64,000 bases of DNA from an uncultured Acidobacteriota bacterium (GCA_963749835.1 CAVVOD010000004.1:361061-425060), one strand, 5' to 3'; shown: positions 5,740-34,599, numbered from the stretch's first letter. Notes: a model not told the origin generated them from the letters alone. Translations and numbers: made by a program.

Positions 5740-5774
5740 ATGGGCCGTCCGTCTATTATGGACTCATTCGAGGT

Positions 5775-5989
5775 GATCGACTCGGGATCCGGGACTCGGG
5801 ACTGGGGATTCGTGGCCGAGCTGGACTGCCAGAGATCGAGCCCGAATCCCGAGTCCGGTCCTATCGAGTCCCGAATCCCGACTGACCGAGTCCCGAATCC
5901 CGACTGACCGAATCCCGAATCCCGACCGACCGAATCCCAAATCCCCACTGACCGATCCCGAGTCCCGAGTCCCGGATCCCGAGTCGATC
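5775..5989. repeat. composite hairpin element: 29-bp perfect terminal inverted repeats (5775-5803 / 5961-5989) enclosing 4 tandem 22-bp units (5866-5953) built from CCCGARY heptamers
   Basis: gatcgactcgggatccgggactcgggact is the exact reverse complement of agtcccgagtcccggatcccgagtcgatc. The units are gagtcccgaatcccgactgacc x2, gaatcccgaatcccgaccgacc and gaatcccaaatccccactgacc. Confidence 0.9.
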
Positions 5990-7235
5990 ATTTCTGCCGG
6001 ACGTCGAACGCCGTCACATTGTCCTGATCGCGGATGAAGAGCTTGCCGTTCGAGACGACGGGATGGCTCCATGTCGGCAGGCTGCCGGTTGGAATCTGGA
6101 AGCGGCCGTGCTCCCGGTATCCGGCCGGGCTGGCCTCGGCGAGGCCGACGACTCCCTGCTCACTGTAGAGGTACAGCCGGTCGTCCGCGAAGACCACGGA
6201 TCCCTTGCCCACGCTGCGATCTCGCCACGCGACCTCGCCGCTGTCGAACTTCATGGCGGTCAGGATCGCGTCGGAGAACCCATAGAGATGATCGCCGATG
6301 AGCACCGAGCTCGCGTGATGGTTCCGCATCTCGCGCGTGAAGTAGACCTGCTTCGCGTCGATGCGGCCGCTCCCCGGCGTCAGCTCGAGGAGCGCGGCCC
6401 CTGTGCTGTAGCCCGACGAGAGGAACACGTGGTTCCCACGGACAATCGGCGTCGCGATGTTGGCCGTGCGGTTGGCGACCTGGGTGTAACTCCACTGCAG
6501 CTTCCCGGTTTCGATGTCGATGCCGAGCGCCCGTTCACCGGTGAAATAGATGGCTTCTCGGATGCCTCCGGCTTCGTGGAGCACGGCCGACGAGTACCCG
6601 GGCTCATCCGCGAGGCTCTTCCAGATAAGGGAACCGTCCGTCTTCTTGAGCGCCACGATGGAGGCTCCCTGGCCTCCGGGGCTGACGAGGATCCGATCGC
6701 TCAACACCAGCGGCGATTCGCTGAGCCCCCACTGAATGTTCCGGCCACCGAACTTCTCCAGGACGTTGACCTTCCAGAACACCTTGCCCGTGGCGGACTC
6801 CACGGCCGCGAGATCACCGCTGGCGCCGAACACATACAGGCGGTCGCCGTCCACCGTCGGCGTGGCCCTTGGACCGTCGCCCCGATCATTTCCGAACTGG
6901 CGGCCGTGCGGGACCTCCCACAGCTTCTTACCGGTCGCGGAATCGAACGCCATCACATATTCGGTCCCACCTCGTGCGCCGAGGGTATACAGGCGCCCGT
7001 TGCCGGTCGCGAAGGATGAGTAGCCCGCGCCGGCGCCCGCGGCGCGCCACGCGACGGGAGGTCCGGTCTTTGGCCAGTCCTTGAGAAGGCCCTTCTCGAC
7101 CGACACGCCGTCCCGCTTTGCGCCCCGCCACTGGGGCCAGTCGTCCAGCGAACGGTTCGAAACCGCCGCCGGGAGGGAGAGCATGGCAATTACGGCCAGG
7201 GCAGGACCCGCCGAACGGCGAAAGCGTGAATTCAT
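5988..7235 (-). CDS. secreted PQQ-like / BamB-type beta-propeller repeat protein
   Basis: ORF 5988..7322. I prefer the internal ATG at 7235 (MNSRFRRSAGPALAVIAMLSLPAAVS signal peptide, GGAG about 8 nt upstream). Repeated ..W....G......P.v.dg.vy.. blades are typical of PQQ-like propellers. Confidence 0.85.
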   Translation of the reverse strand: MNSRFRRSAGPALAVIAMLSLPAAVSNRSLDDWPQWRGAKRDGVSVEKGLLKDWPKTGPPVAWRAAGAGAGYSSFATGNGRLYTLGARGGTEYVMAFDSATGKKLWEVPHGRQFGNDRGDGPRATPTVDGDRLYVFGASGDLAAVESATGKVFWKVNVLEKFGGRNIQWGLSESPLVLSDRILVSPGGQGASIVALKKTDGSLIWKSLADEPGYSSAVLHEAGGIREAIYFTGERALGIDIETGKLQWSYTQVANRTANIATPIVRGNHVFLSSGYSTGAALLELTPGSGRIDAKQVYFTREMRNHHASSVLIGDHLYGFSDAILTAMKFDSGEVAWRDRSVGKGSVVFADDRLYLYSEQGVVGLAEASPAGYREHGRFQIPTGSLPTWSHPVVSNGKLFIRDQDNVTAFDVRQK

Positions 7236-8476: not shown

Positions 8477-8502
8477 GCGCGAATTATACGGGGCGGGCAG
8501 TT

Positions 8503-8612
8503 CTCAGCTATTCAGCTCTCAGCTCTCAGCTCTCAGCTCTCAGCTATCAGATCTCAGCTCTCGGCTAACAGGCTTTTCCGGCGAGCCCCGGGCCCCGAAT
8601 CCCGAGTCCCGA
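8503..8612. repeat. tandem heptamer array (CTCAGCT)n, about 10 units (8503-8573), followed by a short CCCGARY run (8590-8612)
   Basis: tcagcta ttcagct ctcagct x4 atcagat ctcagct ctcggct, then ccccgaatcccgagtcccgaac. Read directly. Confidence 0.85.
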
Positions 8613-8836
8613 ACTGGACCTCAGCCCTCGCCGCGAGAGCGCGACGACAGATCTACTCATCCGCGCAGTCTCAGCAATATACGGATCGTGCTCCCTGAAC
8701 ATCGAAACGCAGTTCTCAGCCCAGCTTTTTACATCCCAATTAAGATATTGCAAACAAAGCACTTATGTCATGCATGGATACTACGGTAGCGGATGAGGCG
8801 GTGTAATGCTGAGTTAGAGGAGTATAGTGTCCTACC

Positions 8837-11803
8837 ATGATTCAGGCACTTCGGCAACTCATCCGCATTTTCGTCATCGTTCTCGGCGTGCAAAGTCTCC
8901 TGCCGGGCGTTGCGTCCGCACAGCAGCCGCCATGGGTCAACGTGACGGGCAATCTGGCGAATATGCCGTCCGAGTGCGGAAACCTGACCATGGTTTCTGC
9001 GGTGCCTGGCGCCAGCACGGTGCTTGCGGGCGTCGCAACCAAAGGCCTGTGGGCGAACAGCACCGGAGATCAATGGGTTCAGCTCGGGACCGGGGCCTCG
9101 TCAGCGACCATCCTCAATCGACCCATCGGGATTGCTTACGATCCCGTCAATTCGGGCGTCTTCTGGGAGTCAGGTATTTACGGCACTGGCGGTGGGGTGT
9201 ACAAGACTACGGATGGCGGCAGTACGTTCGTCCAACTCGGGACCGTATTTCACAACGACTATATCAGCGTTGATTTTGCCGATCCTGCCCGTCAGACGTT
9301 GCTGACCAACGGTCACGAAACGCAGCAGCAGGTGTACCTGTCGACCAACGGCGGACAGGCGTGGACCAATATCGGTTTGAACCTTCCTGCCAATACTGCG
9401 GCCGGCTATCCCCTGCTCCTGGACTCTCAGACGTATCTGGCCGGCGCAGCCCAGGATTTCGGGACCCCTGGCATCCATCGAACAACGAACAGCGGGGCCA
9501 GCTGGCAAAAGGTCAGCGACGACGGACCTAACGCGGCACCGCTGGTGGCTTCAGACGGCATTATCTATTGGTCTCATGCCGACAAGGTTCTCAAATCCAC
9601 GAATTCCGGAGTGACCTGGACTCAAGTTGGAAGCGGCCTGCAGATTGGTCCGTCCGTTGCGATCATCGAGCTGCCCGATGGAACGCTGGTGGGCGTGGGG
9701 ACCACGACCCTGATGAGGTCCGCTGATGGCGGGTCCACGTGGTCTCCGATTGGCCCGACACTGCCGCTATTCAAACCCATATCGTTGACGTATTCGGCGG
9801 CCCGCAAGGCCTTCTTCATTTCGCATTTTGACTGCAACAACTTCGTGTTGCCCGATGCGGTCATGAGCCTTACCTTCGACCCCCTGGCGCAGCCACCGAC
9901 AATGACGCTGGACAGGACGGCGCTCAGTTTCGGCGCGACGAGCGCCGGAGCCGCGTTCAGCAGCAAGACCGGCGCGCAGACGGTGCGGCTGACGCAAACC
10001 ACCGCCGGCACGGTCACGTGGACGGCGACGTCGAATCAGCCGTGGCTCTCCGTGTCGCCCGCATCGGGCACCGGCTCAGCGACACTGACGATCAACGTGG
10101 CGTACTCGAGCAGCGTCGCCACGGCGGGAGTGCAAAGCGGCGCGATCACCCTCGCGTTCAACGGCGCCGCGAACAATCCCGGGCCGGTCAACGTTTCGCT
10201 CAGGACGCTCGTCAACGGCACGGGCCCCACCGGTGCGTTCGATACGCCGACCCACAATACGACGGGCGTGACCGGCTCGATCCCGGTGACCGGCTGGGCG
10301 ATTGACGACCTCGAGGTCACCCGCGTGCGGATCCTGCGCGATCCGGTCGCCGGCGAAGGGGCCGCGCCGGTCTTCATCGGCAACGCCGTCTTTGTCGACG
10401 GGGCTCGCGTGGACGTCGCAACGCGCTACCCGGGCGCGCCGCGCAATACGCGGGCGGGCTGGGGCTATCTGATGCTCACGAATTTCCTGCCCAACCAGGG
10501 GAACGGGACGTTCAAGCTCTATGCGTATGCCGACGATGCCGACGGGAATACGACCGTTCTGGGCACAAAGACAATCGTGTGCGACAACCTGCACGCCATT
10601 ACGCCATTCGGGGCAATCGACACGCCCCTGCAGGGGGCGGTCGTCAGCGGGGTCGTCAACAACTTCGGGTGGGTGCTGGCGCCCGGGACAGGGTCAGTCC
10701 GCGCCGATGTCCCCGGAGGCGGCACGGTGAATGTCGTGATTGACGGAGCGGTCGTGGGCGCGCCCGCTGGGTGGACGTCTCGCACGGATCTGACAACGCT
10801 GTTTCCGACCGGGTTCTCGTCCCTGGCCTCGACGCTTGCGGTGTTCCCCATCGATACGACCGGGCTCACCAACGGCGTCCACACGATCGCCTGGGGGGTC
10901 GTGGCGAACACCGGGCCGGCCTCCGGGGTCGGCAGTCGCTACTTCACGGTGAGCAACGGCAGCGGTCTGCAGGCAGGCGTCCAGGCGCCCCGGGTCAGCG
11001 GCGCGGGGCCGGCCTCGATGACCGCGGTGCGCTCGCACGCACGCGGGTCGGTCGCAGAGACGATCGCGCGTAGTACAGAGGTGAACGCCGCGCCACTGGA
11101 GCGCGCGTCGATCAGCGGGCGTCGTGGTTATGACATCGATGCGCCGTTCCAGCCGTTCCCGGTTGCGGCCAGCGGCCGGACCACAGTGCAAGGGGAGGAG
11201 CTGGACCGCTTCGAGCTGCGGTTGAGCGAAACGGACGGGGAGCGCTACACCGGCTACATGCGCGGCGGGGCCGAGTTGCACGCGCTGCCGATTGGATCGC
11301 GCATCGATCCCGCGACCGGTGTGTTCACGTGGGCGCCCGGAGTCGGTTTCGTTCGCAACTACGACCTCGTGTTCGTCCGATGGACCGATGGTCAGGCGGT
11401 AGCGCGACGGGAAGTGCGATTCGTCCTGCATCCCAGGGGCAGCAATCGGCTTGGGCCGCAGGTCACCATCGACACGCCGGCTGCGAAGGCGACGGTCGGT
11501 CGCGCGTTCTCAATCGGCGGCTGGGCGATCGACCTCGATGATCGCGTGGGCACCGGAATCGACACGCTGCATGTGTGGGCGTATCCGGCGCGCGGCGGCG
11601 ACCCGATCTTCCTCGGCGCGGCGGCGTACGGCGGTGCCCGCCCCGATGTGGCGGCGATCTACGGCGATCGGTTCAAGAACAGCGGCTACGGGATCCGCGT
11701 CGACTCGCTGCCACCGGGACAGTACGATGTAGCCGTGTTCGCGTGGAGCATCCTGAAGGACGGGTTCGTGCCCGCGAAAGTGGTGAGAGTGACGGTTCGA
11801 TAG
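8837..11803 (+). CDS. large secreted protein: BNR/Asp-box beta-propeller N-terminal half plus repeated Ig-like C-terminal domains
   Basis: 988 aa with a signal peptide (..LLPGVASAQQ). Five Asp-box-like motifs are present (TTDGGSTF, STNGGQAW, TTNSGASW, STNSGVTW, SADGGSTW). Three C-terminal repeats have the form ..IDTP....V.G.....GWA.D.. An AT-rich promoter-like island lies at ~8700-8836. Confidence 0.85.
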   Translation: MIQALRQLIRIFVIVLGVQSLLPGVASAQQPPWVNVTGNLANMPSECGNLTMVSAVPGASTVLAGVATKGLWANSTGDQWVQLGTGASSATILNRPIGIAYDPVNSGVFWESGIYGTGGGVYKTTDGGSTFVQLGTVFHNDYISVDFADPARQTLLTNGHETQQQVYLSTNGGQAWTNIGLNLPANTAAGYPLLLDSQTYLAGAAQDFGTPGIHRTTNSGASWQKVSDDGPNAAPLVASDGIIYWSHADKVLKSTNSGVTWTQVGSGLQIGPSVAIIELPDGTLVGVGTTTLMRSADGGSTWSPIGPTLPLFKPISLTYSAARKAFFISHFDCNNFVLPDAVMSLTFDPLAQPPTMTLDRTALSFGATSAGAAFSSKTGAQTVRLTQTTAGTVTWTATSNQPWLSVSPASGTGSATLTINVAYSSSVATAGVQSGAITLAFNGAANNPGPVNVSLRTLVNGTGPTGAFDTPTHNTTGVTGSIPVTGWAIDDLEVTRVRILRDPVAGEGAAPVFIGNAVFVDGARVDVATRYPGAPRNTRAGWGYLMLTNFLPNQGNGTFKLYAYADDADGNTTVLGTKTIVCDNLHAITPFGAIDTPLQGAVVSGVVNNFGWVLAPGTGSVRADVPGGGTVNVVIDGAVVGAPAGWTSRTDLTTLFPTGFSSLASTLAVFPIDTTGLTNGVHTIAWGVVANTGPASGVGSRYFTVSNGSGLQAGVQAPRVSGAGPASMTAVRSHARGSVAETIARSTEVNAAPLERASISGRRGYDIDAPFQPFPVAASGRTTVQGEELDRFELRLSETDGERYTGYMRGGAELHALPIGSRIDPATGVFTWAPGVGFVRNYDLVFVRWTDGQAVARREVRFVLHPRGSNRLGPQVTIDTPAAKATVGRAFSIGGWAIDLDDRVGTGIDTLHVWAYPARGGDPIFLGAAAYGGARPDVAAIYGDRFKNSGYGIRVDSLPPGQYDVAVFAWSILKDGFVPAKVVRVTVR

Positions 11804-11885
11804 CGTGGCGTCAAGAGAACGTACAGCTCTCAGCCGTCAGCTGCGAGTTGGCCGGAAGTGCTTCAGAGGTTTTGCGAAGAAGATC

Positions 11886-12233
11886 AAACACGGAGGCACG
11901 AAGACACGGAGTCCGGACGGAGGCCCCACGAAACGGGTGGTCGGGGCGCGCTCCGCGCGGTGCGGCGAGGACATCTCGCAAACACAAACTCCATCTCACT
12001 TACGGGGAGCTTGTGTTTGCGAGATCTCCTCGCTGCACTCGCCGGCCGAATGGCCGGCGCCCGACCACCCCGGACTCCCCGCAGTCCTATGGCGACAGCG
12101 ACAACAGCCACGGTTGGACACGGCCATCCTCCGAACGGCCCGTGCCTTCGGGTAACCCCCAATCTCTCCGTGCGTCCCCGTGTCTCAGTGGCTCCGTGGT
12201 GGAATTTTCCGTGCCCTCCGTCTCCTCCGTGCC
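11886..12233. mobile_element. MITE-like multi-hairpin element, copy D1 (CACGGAG-type inverted termini, central ~26-bp-stem hairpin 11966-12030)
   Basis: Left end is aacacggaggcacgaagacacggag. The right end ctctccgtgcgtccccgtgtctcagtggctccgtggtgg is the reverse complement of a sequence nearly identical to the left end of D2 (ccaccacggagtcactgagagcacggagacgcacggagag). Internal inverted pair: gggtggtcggggcgc / gcgcccgaccaccc. No ORF with protein character. Confidence 0.65.
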
Positions 12234-15200
12234 CTATCCCCCCGGCGCCACTGGGACAGGCGCCGGGTCGTACGCGAGGTTCGGCGCGAGCCAGCGCTCG
12301 ATGGTCTCGATGTCGGCATCCTTCCGCATGGCGTAGGACTCCACCTGATCCCGTGCAATCCGGCCGACGTTGAAGTACTTCGCCTCCGGATGTGAGAAGT
12401 ACAGCCCGCTCACCGAGGCCGCCGGCAGCATCGCAAAGCTCTCCGTCAGCGTGAGCCCCTGCCGGCCCGCGTCCAGCGCGTCGAACAGCTTGCCCTTCTC
12501 GGTGTGGTCCGGACACGCGGGATAGCCGTATGCCGGACGGATGCCACGATACTTCTCGGCGACGAGATCGTCGTTCGACAACTGTTCCTGGTCGCCGTAT
12601 CCCCAGTCCTTCCGCGCCTGCGCGTGGAGGTACTCCGCGAACGCCTCGGCGAGTCGGTCGGCCAGCGCCTTCACCATGATCGCGTTGTAGTCGTCGTGAT
12701 CCCGCTCGAAGCTCCGCGCCAGTTCGTCAGCGCCGAGTCCGGCCGTCACCGCGAACATCCCGATGTAGTCCGGCACGCCGGTGTCCAGCGGCGCGATGAA
12801 ATCCGCAAGCGATCGGTTCGGACGCTTGTCGGCAATCACTTCCTGCTGGCGCAGCATCGGCAGCCGCGTCAGCTCGACGCGACGCGTGTCGTCCGCGAAC
12901 ACGACGATGTCGTCGCCGACGCTGTTGGCGGGCCAGAAGCCATAGACACCACGGGCCGACAGCAGCTTCTCCTTGATGATCCGCTTGAGGAGTTCCTGCG
13001 CGTTCGCATACAGCTCGCGTGCGGCCGATCCGTAGGTCGGATGTTCCAGGATCGCGGGGAAGCGCCCCTTGAGCTCCCAGGCCGAGAAGAAGAACGTCCA
13101 GTCGATATACCTGGCAATATCCTCGAGCGCCACGTCATCCAGGTATCGGCGCCCGACGAACCACGGTGACGCAATGACGTGACCGTCCCAGTCGATCGTG
13201 AGGCGGTTCGCGCGCGCCTGCTCATACGTCAGCAGCGGTTTCTGCCGCCGCGTGGCGTAGCTCTCGCGAATCTCCGCCTGCGCCACACGGTTCACCCGGT
13301 CGAACTCCTCCCGCCTCTCGCCGATGACGCTTGACACCACGTCCACCGCCCGCGACGCGTCGAGCACGTGGATCACCGGGCCGGAGTATTCGTGCGCAAT
13401 CTTGACGGCCGTGTGCTGCCGGCTCGTCGTCGCTCCCCCAATCAGGAGCGGCGTCGTGAAGCCGCGGCGCTCCATCTCCCGCGCGACGAACGCCATCTCG
13501 TCGAGCGACGGCGTGATGAGCCCGCTCAGCCCGATGATGTCGGCCTTGTGTTCCACCGCCGCATCGAGGATCTTCGCCGCCGGGACCATCACCCCGAGGT
13601 CGATCACCTCGTAGTTGTTGCAGCCCAGCACGACCCCGACGATGTTCTTGCCGATATCGTGAACGTCTCCCTTCACCGTCGCCATCAGGACACGGCCCTG
13701 CGCCGACGCGGCGCCCGTGATGCGCTTACGCTCTTCCATGTACGGCAGCAGGTAGGCGACCGCCTTCTTCATCGCCCGCGCGCTCTTGACGACCTGCGGC
13801 AGGAACATCTTGCCCGCACCAAACAGATCGCCGACGACCTTCATCCCGTCCATCAGCGGGCCCTCGATGATGTGCAGCGGCTCTTCATACTTCTGCCGCG
13901 CCTCCTCGACGTCCACCTCGATGAAGTCCACGACGCCGTGCACGAGGGCGTGCGACAGCCTCGCCTCGACGGTGGCCTCGCGCCAGCCGAGATCGGCTTC
14001 CCGCTTCGTCCCGCTCCCCTTGACGCTGTCCGCGAACTGCACGAGCCGCTCCGTCGCGTCAGGACGACGGTTGAAGATGATGTCTTCGACGTGTTCCAGC
14101 AGGTCCTTCGGGATGTCTTCGTAGACGATCAGCTGTCCGGCGTTGACGATGCCCATGTCCATGCCGGCCTTGATGGCGTGATACAGGAACGCGGAATGGA
14201 TGGCCTCGCGGACGACGTCGTTGCCGCGGAACGAGAAGGACAGGTTGCTGACGCCGCCGCTGATCTTGGCCCCCGGACAGGTCGCCTTGATGATCTTCAG
14301 CGCCTCGATGTAGTTGACCGCATAGTTGTTGTGCTCCTCGAGCCCTGTCGCGATGGCGAGGATGTTCGGATCGAAAATGATGTCGGTCGGATCGAACCCC
14401 GCCTGCTGGATGAGGAGCGTGTAGGCGCGCTGGCAGATCTGCACCTTGCGCTCGACGGTGTCCGCCTGGCCTGTCTCGTCGAAGGCCATGACGACGACGC
14501 CGGCGCCGTACCGGCGGACCGTCCGCGCCTTGTGGAGGAAGTCCTCTTCCCCTTCCTTCAGGCTGATGGAGTTGACGACCCCCTTGCCCTGGACGCACTT
14601 GAGTCCGGCCTCGAGCACGGTCCACCGGGAGCTGTCGATCATCACCGGGACCCGCGCGATCTCCGGCTCCGTCGCGATGAAGTTCAGGAACGTCGTCATC
14701 GCCTGCTCGGAATCGAGCATGCCTTCGTCCATGTTGACGTCAATCATGTTGGCGCCGCCGCGCACCTGCTCGACCGCGACGCTGACGGCCTCGGTGTAGT
14801 TCCCGCTCTTGATCAGCCGCGCGAACTTCGCCGACCCCGTGACGTTGGTGCGCTCGCCAATCATCTGGAAGTTGCTCTCCGGACGGATCGTCAGCACTTC
14901 GAGCCCGGAGAACTGGGAATAGTGGACGGGATCGGGACTCGGGGCTCGAGACTCGGGATTCGGGGCTCGGGACTCGGGGCTCGGCTCGGATTCGGGACTC
15001 GGGATTCGCCCGCCCCCGCTCGCATCCACATCTGTGCGAGCTACGGCGAGGCCGCGCCGTAGCCGCGCCGCGGCGGAGGCGGGGGACTCGGGGCTCGCCG
15101 GATCGGGACTCGGCGACCCGGGCGCCGTAGCTTCCGCCTTCAGGCGGAAGGATGCTGCAGACACCCATGACGGCGACGGCAGCGGCCGCGGCGTCACGCG

Positions 15201-16190
15201 CTCGACGGCCCTGGCGATGGCCGCGATGTGTTCCGGCGTCGTGCCGCAGCAGCCCCCGAGAATGTTGGCGAAGCCGCTGGCGGCGAAATCCTCGAGCAGG
15301 ACGGCGGTTTCCTCGGGCTGCTCGTCGTACTCGCCGAACGCGTTCGGGAGCCCCGCGTTGGGATAGCTGCTGACGTAGCACTCGGATATCCGCGCGAGCT
15401 CCGCCATGTACGGCCGCATCTCGCGCGCACCGAGCGCGCAGTTGATGCCGACGCTGAACGGCTGCGCGTGCCGGATCGAGGTGTAGAACGCGTCCACTGT
15501 CTGGCCGGACAGGGTTCGGCCGCTCCGGTCCGTGATGGTGACCGAGATCATGACGGGCAGGCGCGTGCCCTTTTCCTCGAACACGTTCTCAATCGCGACG
15601 ATCGCGGCCTTGGCGCCCAGGGTGTCGAAGATGGTTTCGAGCAGGAGCAGGTCCGAGCCGCCGTCGATGAGGCCGCGGACCTGCACCTCGTAGGCCGCGC
15701 GCAGCTCGTCGAAGGTGATGGCGCGAAAGGCGGGGTTGTTGACGTCGGGTGAGATGGAGAGCGTGCGATTGGTCGGTCCGAGCGCGCCCGCGACAAAGCG
15801 CGGCCGGTCGGGCGTCCTGGCCGTCCAGGCGTCGGCCGCCTCGCGCGCAAGCCGCGCCCCTTCGACGTTGATCTCGTACGCGAACGGCTCCAGCTCGTAG
15901 TCGGCCTGTGCCACCGCGGTGCCGCCGAACGTATTGGTCTCGATGATGTCGGCGCCGGCCGCGAGGTACTCGAGGTGAATCGCGCTGATCACATCCGGGC
16001 GCGTCAGGACGAGGATGTCGCTGTCCCCCTTCAGATCCCGGGGATGCGTGGCGAACCGTTCGCCGCGGAAGTCCGCCTCCGTCAGTTTCGCGCGCTGGAT
16101 CATCGTGCCCATGGCGCCGTCGAGAATGAGGACGCGGCGTTCGAGGAGAGAGCGAAGCGTGTCGACGGCAGGACTCTTCATACTGGTCAT
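12234..16190 (-). CDS. metH: cobalamin-dependent methionine synthase
   Basis: 1318 aa. All MetH modules are recognisable: Hcy-binding (..[20 protein letters not shown]), pterin-binding (..GERTNVTGS..), B12-binding (..[13 protein letters not shown]..) and the AdoMet activation domain (..[12 protein letters not shown]..). About 90 aa longer than the 1227-aa E. coli enzyme because of the linker insertion annotated separately. Confidence 0.97.
14926..15172 (-). repeat. intergenic-type repeat cassette (heptamer run + GCGAGCTACGGCG + CTTCCGCC-TGAA-GGCGGAAG-CTACGG hairpin) embedded in-frame in metH
   Basis: + strand 14928-15008 reads gggatcgggactcggggctcgagactcgggattcggggctcgggactcggggctcggctcggattcgggactcgggattcg. 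Position 15044 has gcgagctacggcg, and 15125-15150 carries the hairpin module. It is translated as ..[86 protein letters not shown].. Confidence 0.85.
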
Positions 16191-17300: not shown

Positions 17301-17373
17301 GGTCAGCTCTCAGGTCTCAGCTGTGAGCCATTGGTATCGGAGCTGAAAGCTGAGTGCTGAGAGCTGAGAGACC
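17301..17373. repeat. inverted pair of GAGAGCT-family heptamer runs forming an imperfect hairpin
   Basis: ggtcagctctcaggtctcagctgtgagcc .. ggagctgaaagctgagtgctgagagctgagagacc. It lies between the M13 peptidase stop and the SahR-like start. Confidence 0.75.
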
Positions 17374-19448: not shown

Positions 19449-22076
19449 CTACAACCCGGTCGGCAATGCGGCGGCGCGCCGCGCCCTGAGCCACTCGGTC
19501 AGCTTCGCGGGTTGCGTGGCGGCAAGCGAGGAGCACTCGTTGATCCGCTCGACCGCCTGCTGGAGTGTCCGCGTGGCATCCGGCACCTTGTGAAGGGTGA
19601 AGAACTGCTTCACGTTCACGGCTGTCCGCGCGTCGCAGAACGTGCCGAGCGCGGCAATCACCTGAGTATTGCCCCCGAACTGGCCGGTTTTCTTCTGCAC
19701 CTGCGCCCATCGTTCACGGAGGAGCGGCCAGGCGAGTTTCCGCGCGTCAGGGTTGCCCAGCAGATTCGCCAGGAAGACCTTGGCGTCCTGGCTGCGCACA
19801 TCCGGCCCGACGATGTAATCGATCGTCCTGCGCACCAGGGCGGGATCGGTGAAGCCGGCGAGCCCGTACAAATAGCGATAGTGCTCTTCGGGGTCCGTCG
19901 CGGCTTTGCTACGCTCGACATACTTGGCGTACAGCGCGGCGTCACCACGCCGGGCCGCCACTCTGACAGCGGCGTTCAGCAGGGTCGGCTCGACGGTGCC
20001 TGGTTTCGCAAGCTCCTCGAGGACCAGGCTGCGCGCCTTCGCGACGACGGCAGGATCGCCGGCGGCCTCGCCCAGTACCGAGACGAGCGACGCGCGAAGC
20101 GCGCGGGTCTCGTCGCTATCGGAGGCACCGGACGACCATCCGACCCGTTCGAGTGCCGGCCCCAGCAGCGAGCTGACCCACGCACTGTACGCCGGCCGCG
20201 AGCCGGGCGTGGTCAGGTTGTCGCCGATGGTTCCCAGCGAGGCCACCAGTGTGGCGACGACCGCCGCGTCCCGCTCCCCTTTGAATCCAGCGGCGAGGTC
20301 CATGAAGGAGCTGACATCATGCCGTCCCTGGAGCACAAGTGCCCACTCGTCGTCGAGGAGCGAGATCCGCTCGCCGGGCGTCAGTGACGTGATGCCTGCC
20401 GCAAGCTTCGGAAGCATCGCCGGCGGATTCACGACACGGTAATAGCCCCGCGCCCCTGCGTTGGCCATCACATATGCGGGGCACGACTCCAGCGGCACAT
20501 CCAGGGGCTCCTCGCCGACGACCTCGCATGCCGTCTTCCCGTCTGGCGTCTTTATGCAGACCGGAATGTCCCATGTGCGCGGCGGGGCGACGCGGCGGGG
20601 CCCCGAGGCGCCGGTCGGCGCCGTCTCCTGACTGACCGTCGCTGTGCCACGGCCGTCAGCGCACTTGACCGTCGCATCCACCATCGGCACGCCGGGCCGA
20701 TCCACGAAGCCGGCCATCACGCGATCGACGGGCTTCCCGGTGCTCGTCGCCAGCGTGCCCCAGAAGTCCTCTGCGGCGGCATTGCCGTACTTGAACCGTT
20801 CGATGTAGGCGTTGACGCCGGTCCTGAACGCCTCTTCGCCGACCCATGCCTCGATCATCCGGAGCACGGCTGCCCCTTTTCGTACGCGATCGCGTCGAAG
20901 AGCTCGCCGATCTCGTCGGGAGTCGATGCGCTGGTACGGATCGCGCGGGTCGTCTCGAGAGAGTCGAGCGCCATCGCTTTCTGGTTCGACTGAACCTCCT
21001 CGAGCTCCATGTTCCACTCGGGCTTCCATGCCTTGACCGGCTTGCTCGCCATCCACGTGGCGAACCCTTCGTTCAGCCAGATGTCGTCCCACCACCGCAT
21101 CGTCACGAGATCGCCGAACCACTGGTGGGCCATTTCGTGGGCGAGCACGCTGGCGATGTTCTTGCGGACCCTGACCGACGCGCCTTTCGGATCGGCGAGG
21201 AGGAGCGTCTCGCGGTAGAAGATCGCGGCGGTGTTCTCCATCGCTCCCGCGGCAAAGTCCGGGACGGCAACGATGTCGAGCTTCTTGAACGGATACTTCA
21301 CGGTGTAGTAGCGGTTGTAGTACCCGCAGGATCTCGGCGGCCGCCTCGAGCGCCAGGCCGGTCTGCCCCTTCTTGTCCGGTGTGGAGCAGATGCGAATCG
21401 GGATCCCGTCGGCGCTGCGTGACGAGCATTCGAAGTCCCCGACCGCCAGCGCCAGCAGGTACGTCGACATCTTCGGCGTGGTCTCGAATGTGACCGTGTG
21501 CTTCCCCGGCTTCGGGCTCGGCGTGTCGGACACGATCGCGCCGTTCGAGATCGCGTGGTCTCCCGTGTCGATCGTGGCGCTCAGCGCGAACGTCGCCTTG
21601 AACGCGGGCTCGTCGAACGACGGAAACATGCGTCGCGCGTCGGTCGCCTCGAGCTGCGTCACTGCGTAGCGGCGATTGTTGGCCTTGCTGAGATACAGCC
21701 CGCGCAACTGGTTGTTCAGGATGCCGGTGTATTTCACGGCGATCTCGGCGCGCCCCGCGGCAATGACCTGCGGCACCGTGAAGGTGGCCTGTTCGCGCTT
21801 CGGGTCCAGCGTGACGCGGGCGGTCTGCGTGCTGCCGCCGGCAGCGATGGTGACCGTGTCGAATGTGATCTCCGCAGCGTTCAGGGTGATCGTCCGCGAA
21901 GGCTTCTCGAGCGTCACGGTAATCCGCTCGGTGGCCGTAAAACTCGCCGCCGGGAGGTTCGGCTCGACGGCGATCTCGTAGTGCTCCGGGACGACGTTGC
22001 CAGGGAGCCGCTGGGCACGGGCGGGGGAGGCGAAGAGGATCAGCGCGGCACTGAGGACCAGAGGAAATTTACTCAT
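19449..22076 (-). pseudogene. pepN: M1 family aminopeptidase N, disrupted by two compensating 1-nt frameshifts (or sequencing errors) that scramble the catalytic core
   Basis: Begins MSKFPLVLSAALILFASPARAQ at ~22076 inside the 1401-aa track ORF. The catalytic segment ([22 protein letters not shown]) is only readable in another frame (track ORF 20855..21301). Frame switches are at ~21324-21326 (extra G: ctgcggGtactac) and ~20873-20876 (one G missing: gaaaagggg^cagcc, expected [10 protein letters not shown]). Confidence 0.85.
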
Positions 22077-22121
22077 GATGGCACCCGATGAAAGCTCCAA
22101 CTGACGGCCTATACTGGCCGG

Positions 22122-22742
22122 GTGAAAATGAAAGTGTACCCCAGCGCACGTCCTGTGGCCGCGCTCGTGCTGGCGCACGGCGCGGGCGCGGGGCAATCCA
22201 GCCCATTCATGGTTCGCGTCGCCACCGGACTGGCTGAGCGGGGACTCTCCACCGCGACCTTTGATTTCGGCTACATGAGCACGGGACGCAAGGTGCCTGA
22301 CCGCGCGCCCGTGCTCGAAGCCGCGTGGCGCGAGGCGATCGAGTCGGCCCGATCGGAGTTCAGGGGACTGGCGCTCTACATCGGCGGCAAATCCATGGGC
22401 GGACGCATCGCTTCCCACGTGGCCTCGCAGGGAGGAACCGGCCCGCTCGCCGGCCTGGTCTTCCTGGGTTATCCGCTGCATCCGCCGGGGCGTCCCGACC
22501 AGCGCCGCGACGCCCACCTGCCGGCCATCGCTGAACCGATGCTCTTCGTGCAGGGAAGCCGGGACGCCTTCGGCTCGGGGGATGAGATTCGTCAGCTGCT
22601 GCCGTCGCTGCAGCACGCGACGCTGGAGGAGATCCAGGGAGGCGACCACTCCTTCAAAGTCCCGGGCGGCGCCAGCCAGCAGGCGCCCGTCCTCACGGGC
22701 ATCATGGACGCGGTAGCCGCGTGGACACAGAGGACGGCCTGA
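22122..22742 (+). CDS. alpha/beta hydrolase (KANL3/Tex30-like predicted hydrolase family)
   Basis: 206 aa. ..LVLAHGAGAG.., nucleophile elbow ..GGKSMGGR.., ..FVQGSRDAFG.., ..GGDHSF. Confidence 0.8.
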   Translation: MKMKVYPSARPVAALVLAHGAGAGQSSPFMVRVATGLAERGLSTATFDFGYMSTGRKVPDRAPVLEAAWREAIESARSEFRGLALYIGGKSMGGRIASHVASQGGTGPLAGLVFLGYPLHPPGRPDQRRDAHLPAIAEPMLFVQGSRDAFGSGDEIRQLLPSLQHATLEEIQGGDHSFKVPGGASQQAPVLTGIMDAVAAWTQRTA

Positions 22743-22761
22743 CTTGCGCCTGCGCTCGATG

Positions 22762-22890
22762 CGGGAGCTACGGCGGGGCCAGGCCCCATTTCGGGATTCG
22801 GGACTCGGGACTCGGGGTTCGGAAATGCGGAAGCTGGAAGCCGGAAGCTGGAAGCCGGAAGCTGGAAGCTGGCAGCTGACAGCTGATGTC
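22762..22890. repeat. spacer holding three abutting heptamer families plus GGGAGCTACGGCGG and a GGGGCC-A-GGCCCC palindrome
   Basis: gggattc gggactc gggactc ggggttc, then cggaagc tggaagc x6, then tggcagc tgacagc tgatgtc. Read directly; all have a 7-nt period. Confidence 0.9.
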
Positions 22891-22898
22891 TGCCCCTG

Positions 22899-23555
22899 AT
22901 GTCTGAGTCTGACCTTCGCCTCATCGCTGCGACGACCCATGGCCGCGTCCTGGTGCGCGACGCGCGGGCGGCCGCCGCGCGGGGAGTCCTCGTGGGGTTC
23001 CATGGCTACATGGAACAGGCGGTCATCCAGATGGAGCGGCTGCAGGCGATTCCCGGAGCCGCGCGGTGGACGCTCGTGTCCATCCAGGCGCTCCACCGGT
23101 TCTACCGGGGGCGCAGCGAAGAGGTCGTGGCAAGCTGGATGACGAGCCAGGATCGCGAGGCCGCCATCGCCGACAACATCGAGTACGTCGATGCGGCGCT
23201 CGACACGGTCCCCCACGATGCGTCCACGAAGATCGTCTTTGCGGGTTTCTCGCAAGGCGTGGCCATGGCCTTCCGGGCCGCGGTCAGAGGACGTCGTCCC
23301 GCCGCGGGCGTCATTGCGGTTGGCGGCGACGTGCCGCCGGAACTGCTGCTGGATCAGGACGCGGCGTTCCCGTTCGTGCTGCTCGCACGGGGCGCGCGCG
23401 ACGAGTGGCTCACCGCACAGAAGTTCAGAGCGGACCTGAACGCTCTCGCGGAGCGCACGCCTGGACCGAGAGTTCGCGCCGTCGAATTCGAGGGCGGACA
23501 TGAATGGAACGACGCCGTGGCCGAGGCGGCGGGGGATTTTCTCGAGTCCGTCTAG
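22899..23555 (+). CDS. phospholipase/carboxylesterase-type alpha/beta hydrolase
   Basis: 218 aa. ..VLVGFHGY.., nucleophile elbow ..FAGFSQGVAMA.., C-terminal ..GGHEW. Confidence 0.8.
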   Translation: MSESDLRLIAATTHGRVLVRDARAAAARGVLVGFHGYMEQAVIQMERLQAIPGAARWTLVSIQALHRFYRGRSEEVVASWMTSQDREAAIADNIEYVDAALDTVPHDASTKIVFAGFSQGVAMAFRAAVRGRRPAAGVIAVGGDVPPELLLDQDAAFPFVLLARGARDEWLTAQKFRADLNALAERTPGPRVRAVEFEGGHEWNDAVAEAAGDFLESV

Positions 23556-23754
23556 TGTCCTGACCGCGTGGATCGTGCATAAGTCCCGGAGCGCGGCGCC
23601 CGGCTGGCTAGGCGCGACGACCGAGAATACTGGCCGTATTTGAGGGAGGAGCAACGCCGCCAGGCCGGGGCCCCCGCCGCGCGTGTTTTGCGCGGTGGGG
23701 TGGAGAAGGGATGCCCCGCCCGGGAATTATGTCGCGAACCACGCGGTCAGGACA

Positions 23755-24279
23755 CTAAGTCTCCGTCCTGGTCGCTGTGTTCGTGTTCGTCCCGGTGTCC
23801 GTCTTCGTTTCCGGCTTACTGCTCGGGGCTCCGGCCTTCCTCCTGTGCCGCACGCCGGCTTCTTCGACAGAGTGTGACTGCGTCAACGTGACATCGCGAG
23901 CCGCCATCGTCACGAGCTTGTGATAGTGCCGGCGAAGCAGGTTGAGCTCGTCCTCAGAAAGTGACTCCACTTCGATCAGGCGGTTGCTCGCGCCGTCCAG
24001 CGCGGCGACGATCTCGTTCAGCTTCAGGTGAATCGCGAGCGAGTCCTTGTTCTGCGAGCGCTGGATCAGGAACACCATCAGGAACGTCACGATGGTCGTG
24101 CCGGTGTTGATAATCAGCTGCCAGGTGTCCGAATATCCGAAGAGCGGTCCGGTGATCAGCCAGATGAGGATGGTGGCTGCTGCGATTGCGAACGCGGAGG
24201 TGCCGCCGGTCCAGTGCGTAACGCTCGTCGCGAGCCGCTCCAGCCCGCGGCCGAAAGAGTTGTGTGGTTTTCGCCCCAT
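23755..24279 (-). CDS. low-affinity iron permease family membrane protein
   Basis: I prefer the start at MGRKPHNSF (24279). ..HWTGGTSAFAIAAATILIWLITGPLFGYSDTWQLIINTGTTIVTFLMVFLIQRSQNKD..LHLKLNEI.. matches the family signature. Confidence 0.8.
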   Translation of the reverse strand: MGRKPHNSFGRGLERLATSVTHWTGGTSAFAIAAATILIWLITGPLFGYSDTWQLIINTGTTIVTFLMVFLIQRSQNKDSLAIHLKLNEIVAALDGASNRLIEVESLSEDELNLLRRHYHKLVTMAARDVTLTQSHSVEEAGVRHRRKAGAPSSKPETKTDTGTNTNTATRTET

Positions 24280-31836: not shown

Positions 31837-31871
31837 ACCCTTCAGACCCCAGCTGTCCGATTCCGGACACT

Positions 31872-31902
31872 GGGGTCAGACCCCGGTCGTCCGATTACAC
31901 AC
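31872..31902. repeat. third copy of the 31-nt GGGGTCAGACCCC-containing repeat
   Basis: ggggtcagaccccggtcgtccgattacacac. It lies in the 77-nt spacer between the convergent DUF349 and amidohydrolase genes. Confidence 0.8.
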
Positions 31903-31913
31903 TCTGACGGCGC

Positions 31914-33605
31914 TCAGCGCCGGTAGAGAATCTTCCCACCCACGATCGTGTACGCGACCTGCGCGGTACGGATCTGATCCTCCGGAACTGTCAGGATGTT
32001 TTTCGACAGGACCGTCATGTCCGCGAGCTTTCCGATCGCCAGCGACCCGCGCGTATCTTCCTGGAACGCCGCATACGCGCCATTGAGCGTGTAGGACTTC
32101 AGCGCTTCCATCCGGCTCATACGCTGGTCGGGATAAAACACCGTCCCCGCTTTCGTCTTCCGCGTGACGCTCGCGTAGTAGTTCGCAATCGGGTCGACAT
32201 CCTCGACGGGCGCGTCGGTGCCGTTCGCGACGACGGCCCCGCTCTTCATCAGTTTCTGCCAGACATACGCCCCCTCCTCCGCCCGCTTCGGCCCGAGCCG
32301 CTCCAGCACATATGGGGCGTCGGACGTGGCGTGGATGCCCTGCATCGAGGCGATCACGCCGAGCTGCCCGAAGCGTGGAATATCCTCTGGACTCAGGTGC
32401 TGTGCGTGCTCGACACGCCAGCGCACGTTCCGCTTCGAGGGGTTCGCCTTGAAGGCCCGCTCGAAGAGATTCAGCGTCTCGCGATTCGCGCGATCGCCGA
32501 TGGCGTGCACGCACAGCTGGTAGTCGTTGAGCAGCGCCAGGTGCGCGGTTTCGTCGATCGCTTCGATCGGCGTGGTGTTGAGCCCGACGCTGTCTGGCTT
32601 GTCGCTGTACGGCTCCAGCAGCCAGGCGCCGCGCGAGCCCAGTGCGCCGTCCATGACGCGCTTGATCGCCCGGACAGTCAGATGTCCCTCCCCATAGTCG
32701 ATCATCCGGTACTGCTTCAGCTTTTCCGCGAGCAACGCGTTGCGATCGCTGACCATCACCCAGAGCCTGACGCCGATGCGCCGTTCGTCGATCATCGCCT
32801 CCATCAGATCGATCGTCGCAAACGACGAACCTGCATCCTGGAATGAGGTCACTCCCTTCGACAGCACCTCCGCCGATGCGAGCTCCAGTCCTTTGCGGGC
32901 GCGAGCCGTGTCACGCCCGGTCATGCGGACCAGTCCTGCCGCGGTCTCGCGCAGGAGTCCGGTCGGCTCCCCGCTTCCATCCTTGAGGATCTCCCCGCCC
33001 GGCGGGTTGCGCGTCGCGCGTGTGATGCCAGAGATCGCCATCGCTTTCGCATTCACGAACGTCGCATGGCCGCTCGCATGCGTCAGCACGACAGGATTGT
33101 CCGGCGACACGGCGTCCAGCGAGGCGTGCGTCGGAAATCCTTCGACGGCGGGATCCGGACGCCTCGTCCACTTGTCCTGGTGCCATCCCCTTCCGACAAT
33201 CCACTCTCCGGGCTTTGACGTTTTGACCGCCGCCGCCACCTGCGCGACGATCTCGTCCCAGCTGGTCGTCTCCATCAGTTTCAGCTGCAGCTGCGCCTCT
33301 CCCACTCCTGAGAAGTGACCATGACTCTCGATGAAGCCGGGGATGACCAGCTGCCCGTGCAGGTCGATGACCTGAGTGGCCGGACCCGCGTATTTCCTGA
33401 GGTCCGCGCTGGTGCCAAGCGCAATGATCTTGTCGCCACGGACCGCAACGGCTTCGGCCTGCGGCGTCTGCTCGTCCACGGTGACGACCGTGGCATTCGT
33501 GAGCAGAAGATCCGCCGGCGCCGGCTGCTGCCGCGCCTGCGTGGCCACGACGAGAAGCGCAGCAGTGCCGAGCGAGAGGACCGACAGTCTGGATGTGAAA
33601 CGCAC
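31914..33605 (-). CDS. secreted amidohydrolase family protein (Amidohydro_3 / YtcJ-like metal-dependent hydrolase)
   Basis: The track ORF extends to 33881. I prefer the GTG at ~33605 (AGGAG 9 nt upstream; VRFTSRLSVLSLGTAALLVVATQA signal peptide). Motifs: ..VIPGFIESHGHF.., ..LCVHAIGD.., ..NGTDAPVE. Confidence 0.85.
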   Translation of the reverse strand: MRFTSRLSVLSLGTAALLVVATQARQQPAPADLLLTNATVVTVDEQTPQAEAVAVRGDKIIALGTSADLRKYAGPATQVIDLHGQLVIPGFIESHGHFSGVGEAQLQLKLMETTSWDEIVAQVAAAVKTSKPGEWIVGRGWHQDKWTRRPDPAVEGFPTHASLDAVSPDNPVVLTHASGHATFVNAKAMAISGITRATRNPPGGEILKDGSGEPTGLLRETAAGLVRMTGRDTARARKGLELASAEVLSKGVTSFQDAGSSFATIDLMEAMIDERRIGVRLWVMVSDRNALLAEKLKQYRMIDYGEGHLTVRAIKRVMDGALGSRGAWLLEPYSDKPDSVGLNTTPIEAIDETAHLALLNDYQLCVHAIGDRANRETLNLFERAFKANPSKRNVRWRVEHAQHLSPEDIPRFGQLGVIASMQGIHATSDAPYVLERLGPKRAEEGAYVWQKLMKSGAVVANGTDAPVEDVDPIANYYASVTRKTKAGTVFYPDQRMSRMEALKSYTLNGAYAAFQEDTRGSLAIGKLADMTVLSKNILTVPEDQIRTAQVAYTIVGGKILYRR

Positions 33606-33648
33606 GAGAAGAGACTCCTGTTTCGATGATGTCTGGGAGATGCCCGGC

Positions 33649-33692
33649 CGCCGTAGCTCGCACCGATCAGCGAACGGAGGCGAGCGAATCCC
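33649..33692. repeat. short repeat module: CGCCGTAGCTCGC (reverse of GCGAGCTACGGCG) plus GAATCCC x2
   Basis: ccgccgtagctcgcaccgatcagcgaacggaggcgagcgaatcccgaatcccg, read directly. Confidence 0.7.
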
Positions 33693-33702
33693 GAATCCCG
33701 TC

Positions 33703-34599
33703 CTAACGGAACAATCGGTCGAAATTGTCGCCGAAGATGAGCGCCCTGTCGGCGTCGGCGAGACCCGCTGCGCGCACCGCAGCATCCTGCGCCGCATACA
33801 CAGGCTCCAGCCATCCCCGTGGGAAGAACGACGAGTCCGTCCCGAAGACGACGCGCTCGGCTCCGACGACGGCGACGGCATGCTGGAACACGGCTTCGAG
33901 CGTCAGGCCCGGATGGTATTTCAACCACCGGTTCGAGCTGGAGGTATCCAGGTGGATGTTCGGGCACTGGTCCGCCGCCATGAGCACTTCGCGGAAGAGC
34001 CCCGCGCCGAAGTGCGGCACGATGACGGGGACATTCGGGAACCGTGCGGCGGTCGCGGCCAGCGCGAGCGGATCGCCCAGGCGCATGTCGAACGGCGAGA
34101 GCAGGCCCAGCTTCTTCCTGATACCCACGCTCAGCACGCCGCAGTGCGCGAACACCACCGCGCCGCCGGCCTGCGCCGCGGCAAAGACATCCCGCACGCG
34201 CTCGTCGTCCAGCCGGTACCCGTGCATCGCGGGGAAGAGGCAGACTCCGCTGAGGCCCTGCTCGCCGAGGACGCGCGACAGCCGGGTCCGCACATCTCCC
34301 TGCAGAGGGTTGAACATGAAGAAGCCGATGAACCTCGTGGGGTGCCTGCGGACGGCGGCGAAGACCGACTCTTCGTCGCCGGCGATGCTTCCAATCAGAG
34401 CGACCTTCGAAACGTTGTGCCTGTCCAGTTCGGCGACCCAGCGGTCAGCCAGCTCCTCGATTGTGCCCGGATCGTTCCATCCCACGCGGTGCGATACTGC
34501 GGTTGCGCGGCCGGTGTCCGGCAAGTCGCGAATGCCCTGAGTCAGCAGTTCGAGGAACCGGGACGAGAACAAGTGGCAATGAACGTCGCACAGGCGCAT
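33703..34599 (-). CDS. amidohydrolase family protein (Amidohydro_2 / TIM-barrel metal-dependent hydrolase)
   Basis: I prefer the start MRLCDVHCHLF (34599), which carries the HxH metal motif. ..VVFAHCG.. and ..VFGTDSSFFPRGW.. Confidence 0.8.
   Translation of the reverse strand: MRLCDVHCHLFSSRFLELLTQGIRDLPDTGRATAVSHRVGWNDPGTIEELADRWVAELDRHNVSKVALIGSIAGDEESVFAAVRRHPTRFIGFFMFNPLQGDVRTRLSRVLGEQGLSGVCLFPAMHGYRLDDERVRDVFAAAQAGGAVVFAHCGVLSVGIRKKLGLLSPFDMRLGDPLALAATAARFPNVPVIVPHFGAGLFREVLMAADQCPNIHLDTSSSNRWLKYHPGLTLEAVFQHAVAVVGAERVVFGTDSSFFPRGWLEPVYAAQDAAVRAAGLADADRALIFGDNFDRLFR

Follow-up and report, generated by a model that had tools for sequence, protein, structure and literature searches.

Palindromic intergenic elements of soil Acidobacteriota and a possible partnership with GxxExxY nucleases

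Three elements between genes in the window

A 64,000-nucleotide stretch of DNA from an uncultured Acidobacteriota bacterium (GCA_963749835.1, CAVVOD010000004.1:361061-425060), referred to here as the window, contains three intergenic elements, D1 (11886-12233), D2 (35205-35555), and D3 (38232-38520), in which inverted arms of CACGGAG-like repeats lie outside, followed by a spacer and, inside, a GC-rich core of about 130 nt. A first-pass annotation, made from the sequence alone, had reported them as copies of a single family resembling miniature inverted-repeat transposable elements (MITEs), and all three copies were confirmed at these positions. The core recurs in soil metagenomes, where it is associated with genes for small nucleases of the GxxExxY family. 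Homologs of metH and of the beta-lactamase-like gene place the window in the Acidobacteriota, near metagenome-assembled genomes labeled Vicinamibacterales.

D1 lies between a gene for a BACON-domain protein (8837-11803, plus strand) and metH (12234-16190, minus strand), D2 between a metallophosphoesterase gene (33376-35076, plus strand) and a gene for a major facilitator superfamily (MFS) transporter (35586-36740, minus strand), and D3 between a class A beta-lactamase-like gene (37359-38225, plus strand) and an unannotated gene (38542-39696, minus strand). Convergent gene pairs flank all three elements, as the first-pass annotation had pointed out, but such junctions are not a rule of the family. 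The D1 orthologs in two relatives (L002 and L005; fetched loci are given as L numbers) are flanked by tandem genes; the element can thus do without a convergent junction, and the suggestion that the elements survive only at 3'-3' junctions fails. The elements had also been described as lacking protein-like coding capacity, and neither a GxxExxY remnant nor any other protein signal was found in D1, D2, or D3; their orthologs likewise yielded no GxxExxY remnant.

The core is formed by four stems: P1, which closes it by pairing GGGTGGTCGG.. with ..CCGACCACCC; the two short GC hairpins P2 and P4, one being CGCGC-TYC-GCGCG and the other GCCGGCC-loop-GGCCGGC; and the long hairpin P3. Single-strand folding gave z-scores against shuffled sequence of -7.9, -8.6, and -7.7 for D1, D2, and D3. 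The central hairpin was thought to differ in sequence between copies while keeping its stem, and its arms are indeed 33, 31, and 37 nt long in D1, D2, and D3 and 91, 87, and 84% complementary; the D1 and D2 hairpins are still recognizably homologous, with paired changes. The internal GC-rich inverted pairs that had been ascribed to the family (GGGTGGTCGG.. / ..CCGACCACC and GCCGGCC-loop-GGCCGGC) can be seen in D1 and D2 but are degenerate in D3, in which the GCCGGCC hairpin (P2) has lost 5 nt relative to the ortholog L104. Copies within this one genome are only about 72% alike.

A covariance model of the core, designated R1, was built from 29 aligned cores (alignment A2). Run against the window with filters off, R1 gave only three real matches, all on the minus strand, and these were D1, D2, and D3. 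D3 is a true but diverged member of the family because it is matched by R1 at 56.5 bits (E = 2e-8); its ortholog, the L104 core, scored 83.8 bits. The features of the three elements are as follows.

11875-11923, unstranded: D1 left arm, CGAAGAAGATCAAACACGGAGGCACGAAGACACGGAGTCCGGACGGAGG, with CACGGAG-type repeats and an AAGATC terminal motif
11939-12066, minus strand: D1 core, four-way junction (R1, 104.5 bits, E = 4e-17)
11939-11944 / 12061-12066: D1 P1, extending to 11935-11948 / 12057-12070
11947-11959: D1 short hairpin, CGCGC-TCC-GCGCG
11960-12038: D1 long hairpin, P3
12040-12059: D1 second short hairpin, CGCCGGCC-GAAT-GGCCGGCG
12071-12160, unstranded: D1 "extra" segment between core and right arm, with small hairpins; lineage specific, kept in L005 and different in L002
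12164-12233, unstranded: D1 right arm, with CTCCGTG-type repeats that reach the metH stop codon (12234-12236)
35200-35244, unstranded: D2 left arm, AAGATCCACCACGGAGTCACTGAGAGCACGGAGACGCACGGAGAG, homologous to the arms of GxxExxY-bearing units
35245-35312, unstranded: D2 "extra" segment, kept in the ortholog L103
35315-35340, plus strand: D2 fragment of an older core (short hairpin and P1' strand), GTCGCGCGAAGCGCGGCCCGACCACC, in the L103 orientation
35357-35486, minus strand: D2 core, complete four-way junction (R1, 102.2 bits, E = 1e-16), inverted and with a different long hairpin relative to L103
35516-35549, unstranded: D2 right arm, CCCTCCGTGCGCTCCGTGTCCCCGTGGTGATCTT
38237-38288, unstranded: D3 left arm, a diverged array of ACACGGA-type repeats
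38304-38420, minus strand: D3 core, diverged (R1, 56.5 bits), with the long hairpin at 38318-38405
38472-38513, unstranded: D3 right arm, GATCCGCGTTCTTCCGTGTTATCCGTTTTGTCCGTGTCCTGG

A covarying core and separable arms

Soil metagenome contigs were scanned with a 23-base pattern taken from P1 and the first short hairpin, which yielded at least 80 loci. A whole core was present in about 45 of the 80 loci listed, the rest being chance coding matches or plain hairpins, and an R1 search found second cores in several loci. In 33 distinct cores the length is 128 to 133 nt and that of the long-hairpin region is 80 to 85 nt; lineages mostly have long hairpins of unrelated sequence but keep their length and pairing. 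RNAalifold folded the 29 aligned cores into a four-way junction with almost no unpaired bases at the junction. Double compensatory changes were detected at 27 of the 28 long-hairpin pairs, and P1 and the two short hairpins (P2 and P4) are invariant in this alignment. The same 26-base core sequence was found in distantly related hosts, and the element occurs in soil Acidobacteriota (Vicinamibacterales-like) and neighboring lineages.

The elements matched no Rfam 15 family at gathering scores, the acidobacterial motifs included, in the search that the first-pass annotation had proposed; at E ≤ 5 only generic microRNA-hairpin models were matched, on the long hairpin of D1 and far below their thresholds. 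Plasmid and phage collections held no match to D2, and the core pattern was absent from viral contigs. The exact 26-base core pattern, which proved too strict, gave only two chance matches in a genome collection (L003 and L004).

Pairing in the long hairpin favors neither strand. The long-hairpin cells of the 29 aligned cores comprise 705 Watson-Crick pairs, together with 27 that read as G·U on one strand and another 27 that would read as G·U on the opposite one. Folding the cores singly gave 47 G·U versus 26 A·C, compared with 27 versus 27 in the alignment, which was treated as no asymmetry. An RNA functioning from a single strand would be expected to have more G·U on that strand; no such excess exists, and the constraint is therefore symmetric, acting either on the DNA (hairpins or a cruciform, on either strand) or on an RNA structure that both transcripts require. 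One recurrently non-Watson-Crick position lies close to the end of the long hairpin, in ACAAGCY / RGYTTGT (columns 59 and 83 of alignment A2; the region of 11984 / 12014 in D1). It is G·T in 10 cores and A·C in 8, two pairings of the same wobble geometry, with G-C in a further 10 and A-T in the remaining one.

The arms are inverted arrays of CACRGAG-type repeats of 7 to 10 nt that end in (GA)TCACCAC. The inverted CACGGAG-type termini seen at first pass are borne out: the arms are 81% complementary in D1 (11884-11909 / 12178-12203), 85% in D2 (35206-35232 / 35518-35544), and 76% in D3 (38237-38257 / 38493-38513), and the reverse complement of the D1 right end, said to resemble the D2 left end closely, matches it at 89.8% over 49 nt. 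D-type inverted termini span 33 to 57 nt at 74 to 90% identity. The whole window shows no enrichment of CACGGAG (21 matches versus 15.9 ± 3.9 expected); 10 of the 21 copies lie in the arms of D1 and D2, always forward in the left arm and always reverse in the right. The usual arm at independent sites reads TTCACCAC-RGAG N CACRGAG NG CACRGAG ACG CACRGAG, and the D2 left arm is homologous, motif by motif, to the arm of a nuclease-bearing unit, L075.

Cores in the window occur only with CACGGAG-type arms and never with the far commoner GGGACTC or AGCTGAG arrays. At one locus of the relatives, between ComEC and MazG genes, the cores sit between other arms, CGAAGAAA in L047 and GATCCGAA in L093, and the left and right arms match at 93 to 94% within each of these two, though the arms differ between the orthologous loci. 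Conversely, the arm pattern was found in five lower-GC loci among viral-collection contigs, with the arms single or paired and without a core. Because arms occur without a core (L001, L008, and L012) and cores without CACGGAG arms (the ComEC/MazG locus), the element is a composite of two separable modules. In L008 (4073-4209) and L012 (12491-12620), an inverted arm motif (TCCACCACGGAGGCACGGAGACACGGAGAA ... its reverse complement) surrounds about 100 nt of AT-rich DNA lacking hairpins, and in L010 a single arm lies directly upstream of an open reading frame (ORF) resembling a serine recombinase. In a literature search the arm sequences appeared in no paper, and queries on Vicinamibacter or heptanucleotide repeats gave nothing useful.

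Turnover and nuclease genes in relatives

Comparison of the sites of D1, D2, and D3 with the same sites in relatives revealed gain, loss, and replacement of the element.

D1 site, L005 (metH 94%): full element, long hairpin as in the window
D1 site, L001 (93%): arms joined to each other, no interior
D1 site, L002 (91%): full element in the same frame, with an unrelated long hairpin and spacer, plus a truncated duplicate
D1 site, L006 (90%) and L007 (88%): element absent
D2 site, L103: arms and spacer as in the window, core inverted, long hairpin different
D2 site, L105: element absent
D3 site, L104 (beta-lactamase gene 91%): filled, GCCGGCC hairpin intact
D3 site, L103 (95%) and L105 (85%): empty, with spacers of 39 to 42 nt

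At D2, beside its own inverted core, the window keeps 26 nt (35315-35340) left over from a core oriented as in L103. Alleles that lack only the long hairpin were also found (L015 versus L045, and L051 versus L005). The truncated tandem duplicate in L002 (13870-14057), downstream of metH, consists of arm, spacer, P1, and the first short hairpin; within the long hairpin it breaks off into some 230 nt of unrelated DNA (14058-14284), after which comes the complete copy.

Divergence between the window and L005 is 20% at fourfold-degenerate sites of metH, 8.8% over the whole of D1, and 4.7% in its core; the corresponding values for L104 are 31% (beta-lactamase gene), 11.5% over D3, and 6% in the core. 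Compared with L103, fourfold-degenerate sites of the beta-lactamase and MFS genes differ by about 10% and the arms and spacer of D2 by 8 to 11%, while the core has been replaced, so that replacement and inversion of the D2 core took place within about 10% synonymous divergence. Within a lineage, cores are better conserved than synonymous sites; between lineages they are swapped wholesale, and their change is punctuated rather than gradual.

In L047, a 144-amino-acid ORF whose 3' end directly borders the core encodes a GxxExxY protein (TIGR04256, E = 2e-34; PF13366 [PDDEXK_3], E = 1e-35). A GxxExxY gene lies no more than 300 nt from a core in at least 24 fetched loci, many of which represent one orthologous locus in which ComEC is followed by the GxxExxY gene and core and then by MazG. 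At independent sites, the gene adjoins the core in about 6 of 16 cases, and these paralogs are only 36 to 43% identical to the L047 protein. This proportion is far above the expectation for a family that makes up well under 1% of genes, an expectation that is an estimate rather than a computed test. The catalytic D..E-x-K motif is invariant in the alignment of GxxExxY proteins. The protein matched no model of a defense system, no solved structure was found for it, and no relatives were detected in viral contigs. A 2012 survey of the nuclease superfamily lists GxxExxY as a family of unknown function with multiple transfers (PMC3424549), and a literature search found almost no other mention of GxxExxY or PF13366.

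Among the fetched loci, the only gene ever found inside the arms, or flanked by cores, is that for GxxExxY. L075 carries a complete unit with the order arm, core, GxxExxY, core, arm, in which the 54-nt arms are 100% identical, and L020 has the same order. In L081, two cores enclose a remnant of the GxxExxY gene (tblastn, 1e-9). L058 and L084 share the second core of L075 and its flank, with tandem cores 58 nt apart. Only one core remains inside the CACGGAG arms of L045, L066, L068, and L091, as in D1, D2, and D3, and these forms make up a decay series that leads from the gene-bearing units to the elements of the window. Of the modules of the nuclease cassette, D1, D2, and D3 share the core, as recognized by R1, and the CACRGAG arms but not the nuclease gene. 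The orientation of the core relative to its neighbors or to the GxxExxY gene is not fixed (L049 versus L047; D2 in the window versus L103).

Many GxxExxY ORFs lack a stop codon before the core and run into it (L047, 2848-2895, and the C termini in alignment A3). The resulting tail, P-V-G-P-R-E-A-R-L/P-K, is the translation of the P1' strand and the short hairpin. MazG ORFs at the ComEC/MazG locus are likewise extended through the arm.

A putative nuclease partnership, its rivals, and other repeats

These results are consistent with D1, D2, and D3 being gene-less, non-autonomous members of a modular palindromic DNA element that carries a GxxExxY nuclease in its full form, a reading to which we assign a probability of roughly 0.5. 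The full unit would consist of an arm, a core, the gene for GxxExxY (PF13366 / TIGR04256, of the PD-(D/E)XK fold), a second core, and an inverted arm, and loss of the gene and one core could give rise to single-core elements such as those in the window. The core is predicted to fold on either strand into a perfect four-way junction, and the element would act at the DNA level, through hairpins or a cruciform in single-stranded or supercoiled DNA. The part of the core that is conserved in sequence may be the recognition site of the cognate nuclease, which could be supplied in trans by a master copy elsewhere in the genome and could promote the copying, replacement, or inversion of cores within arm pairs. 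The elements may persist just downstream of gene 3' ends because insertion there would be harmless. We infer that the nuclease recognizes and mobilizes the core because the two are linked, because P1 and the short hairpins are conserved across distant hosts, and because of the turnover at D2. More tentatively, it is possible, but somewhat doubtful, that GxxExxY proteins, which are abundant small PD-(D/E)XK nucleases, are the enzymes of an unrecognized class of bacterial selfish or domesticated elements, with the four-way-junction core as the recognition structure and D1, D2, and D3 as non-autonomous copies. Paired inverted arms of short repeats would then receive copies of cores, whether or not these bring the gene along, and the partnership would be founded on an enzyme with a restriction endonuclease fold in place of an HUH or DDE transposase.

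Several observations weigh against a mobile, nuclease-driven element. The unit of gene and core at the ComEC/MazG locus has been inherited vertically over a range of 70 to 100% protein identity, as expected of a resident rather than a jumper. The predicted fold of the GxxExxY protein (predicted local distance difference test score, 74) resembles generic PD-(D/E)XK nucleases weakly, with no match at E ≤ 1e-3, and its matches give no pointer to junction-specific cleavage. A search of the whole 64-kb window at E ≤ 100 or 1, with every HMMER filter disabled, found no GxxExxY gene or remnant, and the flanks fetched for the closest relatives held no such gene. The invariance of P1 and the first short hairpin is partly built in because the loci were picked with a pattern inside them. 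A core that evolves more slowly than synonymous sites fits a function for the host equally well as recognition by a nuclease. Finally, no direct repeat or target-site duplication is evident at the ends of D1, D2, or D3 and no exact insertion boundary is definable, the spacers of the empty sites (L007, L103, and L105) not being alignable with those of filled ones.

The closest known analogue is the partnership of REPINs (repetitive extragenic palindromic [REP] doublets forming hairpins) with RAYTs (REP-associated tyrosine transposases). REPINs have conserved ends and a spacer that is constrained in length and in its capacity to form hairpins, with compensatory changes common (PMC3116915). The cores described here likewise have invariant P1 strands around a spacer fixed in length and pairing. 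The action proposed for the nuclease would parallel the presumed maintenance of REPINs by RAYTs. Both systems comprise short extragenic palindromic repeats with conserved ends and an interior under length and pairing constraint, and in both, dispersed non-coding copies accompany a single, vertically inherited protein gene flanked by the repeat, as seen here in L075 and L020 and in the stable ComEC/MazG locus. However, the partner of REPINs is a Y1 transposase of the IS200/IS605-type HUH class rather than a PD-(D/E)XK nuclease, and their unit is a simple hairpin rather than a 130-nt four-way junction inside inverted arms of short tandem repeats. REPINs number tens to hundreds per genome, compared to 3 copies in 64 kb here. 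No Y1 transposase, and no transposase of any kind, was present among the Pfam-annotated neighbors of fetched loci, though whole genomes were not searched. Given the different class of enzyme, the four-way junction, and the arms of short repeats, D1, D2, and D3 are not REPINs.

Other known systems offer partial likenesses. The bacterial interspersed mosaic elements of enterobacteria are extragenic mosaics that combine a small number of short modules and lie at gene 3' ends. The elements in the window share this modularity and placement but have no sequence relation to them and use another set of modules, and the enterobacterial mosaics have neither an internal four-way junction nor a linked nuclease gene. 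Homing endonucleases with the PD-(D/E)XK fold, such as I-Ssp6803I, may be free-standing or borne by introns. They resemble the present system in that a small PD-(D/E)XK nuclease is the sole gene of a selfish, compact cassette and in the series from gene to pseudogene to gene-less form; the units described here differ in having no intron or intein context and in their elaborate conserved palindromes and inverted arms. The intervening sequences of 23S rRNA carry small ORFs. There too, long inverted flanks surround a small orphan gene and would form a long stem in RNA, but the elements described here lie in intergenic DNA, not in rRNA.

The main rival, which is compatible with a nuclease-linked element and not mutually exclusive with it, is a bidirectional RNA structure at 3' ends that is useful to the host. 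In transcripts arriving from either side, arms and core would form a duplex and junction of great stability that would stop read-through, block 3' exonucleases, or be cut by RNase III, and the nuclease cassettes would carry the same insulator. The element always lies just after at least one gene 3' end, most sites are convergent, the folding z-scores are near -8, and the cores are 4 to 5 times more conserved than fourfold-degenerate sites. Folding in both transcripts also predicts the symmetric, nearly all Watson-Crick pairing, and the arms of L047 and L093 have diverged from each other yet remain 93 to 94% complementary within each locus. We nevertheless regard this explanation as rather unlikely. 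The possibility of a terminator, raised at first pass, is weakened by the lack of a T-tract: no intrinsic terminator (a GC-rich hairpin with a T/U tract) was detected inside D1, the sole match, at 11823-11837, lying outside it and at chance level. A terminator would need no 26-base sequence shared by distantly related hosts. Close relatives do without the element at the same junctions, having a 39- to 42-nt spacer or a simple hairpin instead, and the core is specifically linked to a nuclease gene and, at D2, was replaced and inverted within a short synonymous distance.

A structured non-coding RNA (ncRNA) had been offered as a further alternative. If the elements were discrete ncRNA genes, the four-way junction would act in trans or bind protein, for example as the RNA partner or antitoxin of GxxExxY, as might be suggested by the strong covariation of the long hairpin, its fixed length, the short hairpins conserved in sequence, and the genomic linkage to a single protein family. 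This appears improbable. It is weakened by the G·U pairs, which are rare and no commoner on one strand than on the other (27 versus 27); in addition, stems of 28 to 37 nearly perfect pairs are unusual among functional bacterial RNAs, no promoter-like site was found at D1, the orientation to neighboring genes and to GxxExxY varies, and no Rfam family was matched. In the initial description as MITE-like mobile elements, the non-autonomous character and the presence or absence between close relatives stand, but a classical MITE, in the sense of an insertion sequence with an internal deletion and with CCACCACGGAG termini that a DDE or HUH transposase recognizes, is very improbable. Like MITEs such as the Correia elements (NEMIS), the elements are small, have terminal inverted repeats, lack coding capacity, and vary in presence between strains. 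Unlike MITEs, their copies are divergent in sequence and conserved in structure, at only about 72% identity within one genome, target-site duplications were not found, and the termini are tandem short repeats that vary between lineages (CACGGAG, CACAGAG, CGAAGAAA, or GATCCGAA) while left and right still match. The autonomous, transposase-encoding relative expected of a MITE was not seen, the larger units encoding only GxxExxY; in place of the cognate transposase with matching termini for which the first-pass annotation had advised a search, or of a reverse transcriptase, the likely partner is the GxxExxY PD-(D/E)XK nuclease of the metagenomic relatives.

Four further candidates were dropped: a sponge for CsrA-type proteins, because the ANGGA motifs in the arms are hidden through pairing with the complementary arm; an integron attC site, with no R'/R'' motif and no integrase; a retron msr-msd, with no reverse transcriptase; and the repeat RNA of a type III toxin-antitoxin system, the arms being inverted rather than direct, with units of 7 to 10 nt.

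The nuclease-linked repeat element is undescribed, and D1, D2, and D3 look like stripped-down relatives of it. If true, the proposed link would provide the first functional context for GxxExxY / PF13366, a large and widespread family of small nucleases, and would represent a second, mechanistically different case of the REPIN-RAYT type, in which a genome, a gene for a protein, and that gene's non-coding repeats are partners over the long term. As a natural nested palindrome, the core has a long arm that changes its sequence completely while keeping its length and its perfect pairing on both strands, and it should be useful for asking how palindromes are maintained at the DNA level. The elements also have practical consequences. 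They fragment metagenome assemblies of soil Acidobacteriota and Gemmatimonadota, with many GxxExxY genes on contigs of 0.5 to 3 kb, and they extend called ORFs, as in the "VGPREARLK" tails and in a linker of metH.

This metH linker, which joins the homocysteine S-methyltransferase and pterin-binding domains (14858-15203, minus strand), is about 115 amino acids long, and its DNA is of the intergenic type, in frame, with a GGGACTC 7-nt array and a CTTCCGCC..GGCGGAAG hairpin. The length of the linker varies in close relatives, whose proteins have 1236 to 1339 amino acids. A listed ORF of 1401 amino acids (19449-23654, minus strand) contains arrays of the 7-nt repeats TTCGGGA and GGAAGCT (22790-22886); either repeats have again been inserted in frame, or the ORF joins two genes by read-through.

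Other 7-nt repeats (GGGACTC/CCCGAAT, AGCTGAG, and GGAAGCT) are present as tandem arrays in nearly all gaps between genes that exceed 40 nt in the window. They occur at 2873-2930, 5779-5982, 8498-8613, 17303-17370, 22790-22886, 44060-44080, 46126-46169, 48547-48644, 49330-49353, and 60633-60752, and several start with GATC, like the arms of the D elements. Many form near-perfect inverted pairs without a core (5774-5809 / 5955-5990, 97%; 60633-60678 / 60706-60751, 89%), and two AGCTGAG arrays 5.6 kb from each other (2869-2924 and 8512-8567) are copies in inverse orientation. An inverted repeat of 45 nt (23553-23597 / 23713-23757, 76% complementary), unrelated in sequence to the D family, surrounds 115 nt between two minus-strand genes. 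The small hairpin CTTCCGCCTNNAGGCGGAAGCTACG occurs three times, at about 15127-15153 in the metH linker and at 44031-44068 and 48577-48614. A 33-nt repeat, TGGGGTCAGACCCCGGTCGTCGGATTACGCACT, which contains a GGGGTC-A-GACCCC hairpin, is present at 2522-2554, 2572-2604, and 31871-31903, with 85 to 94% identity between copies.

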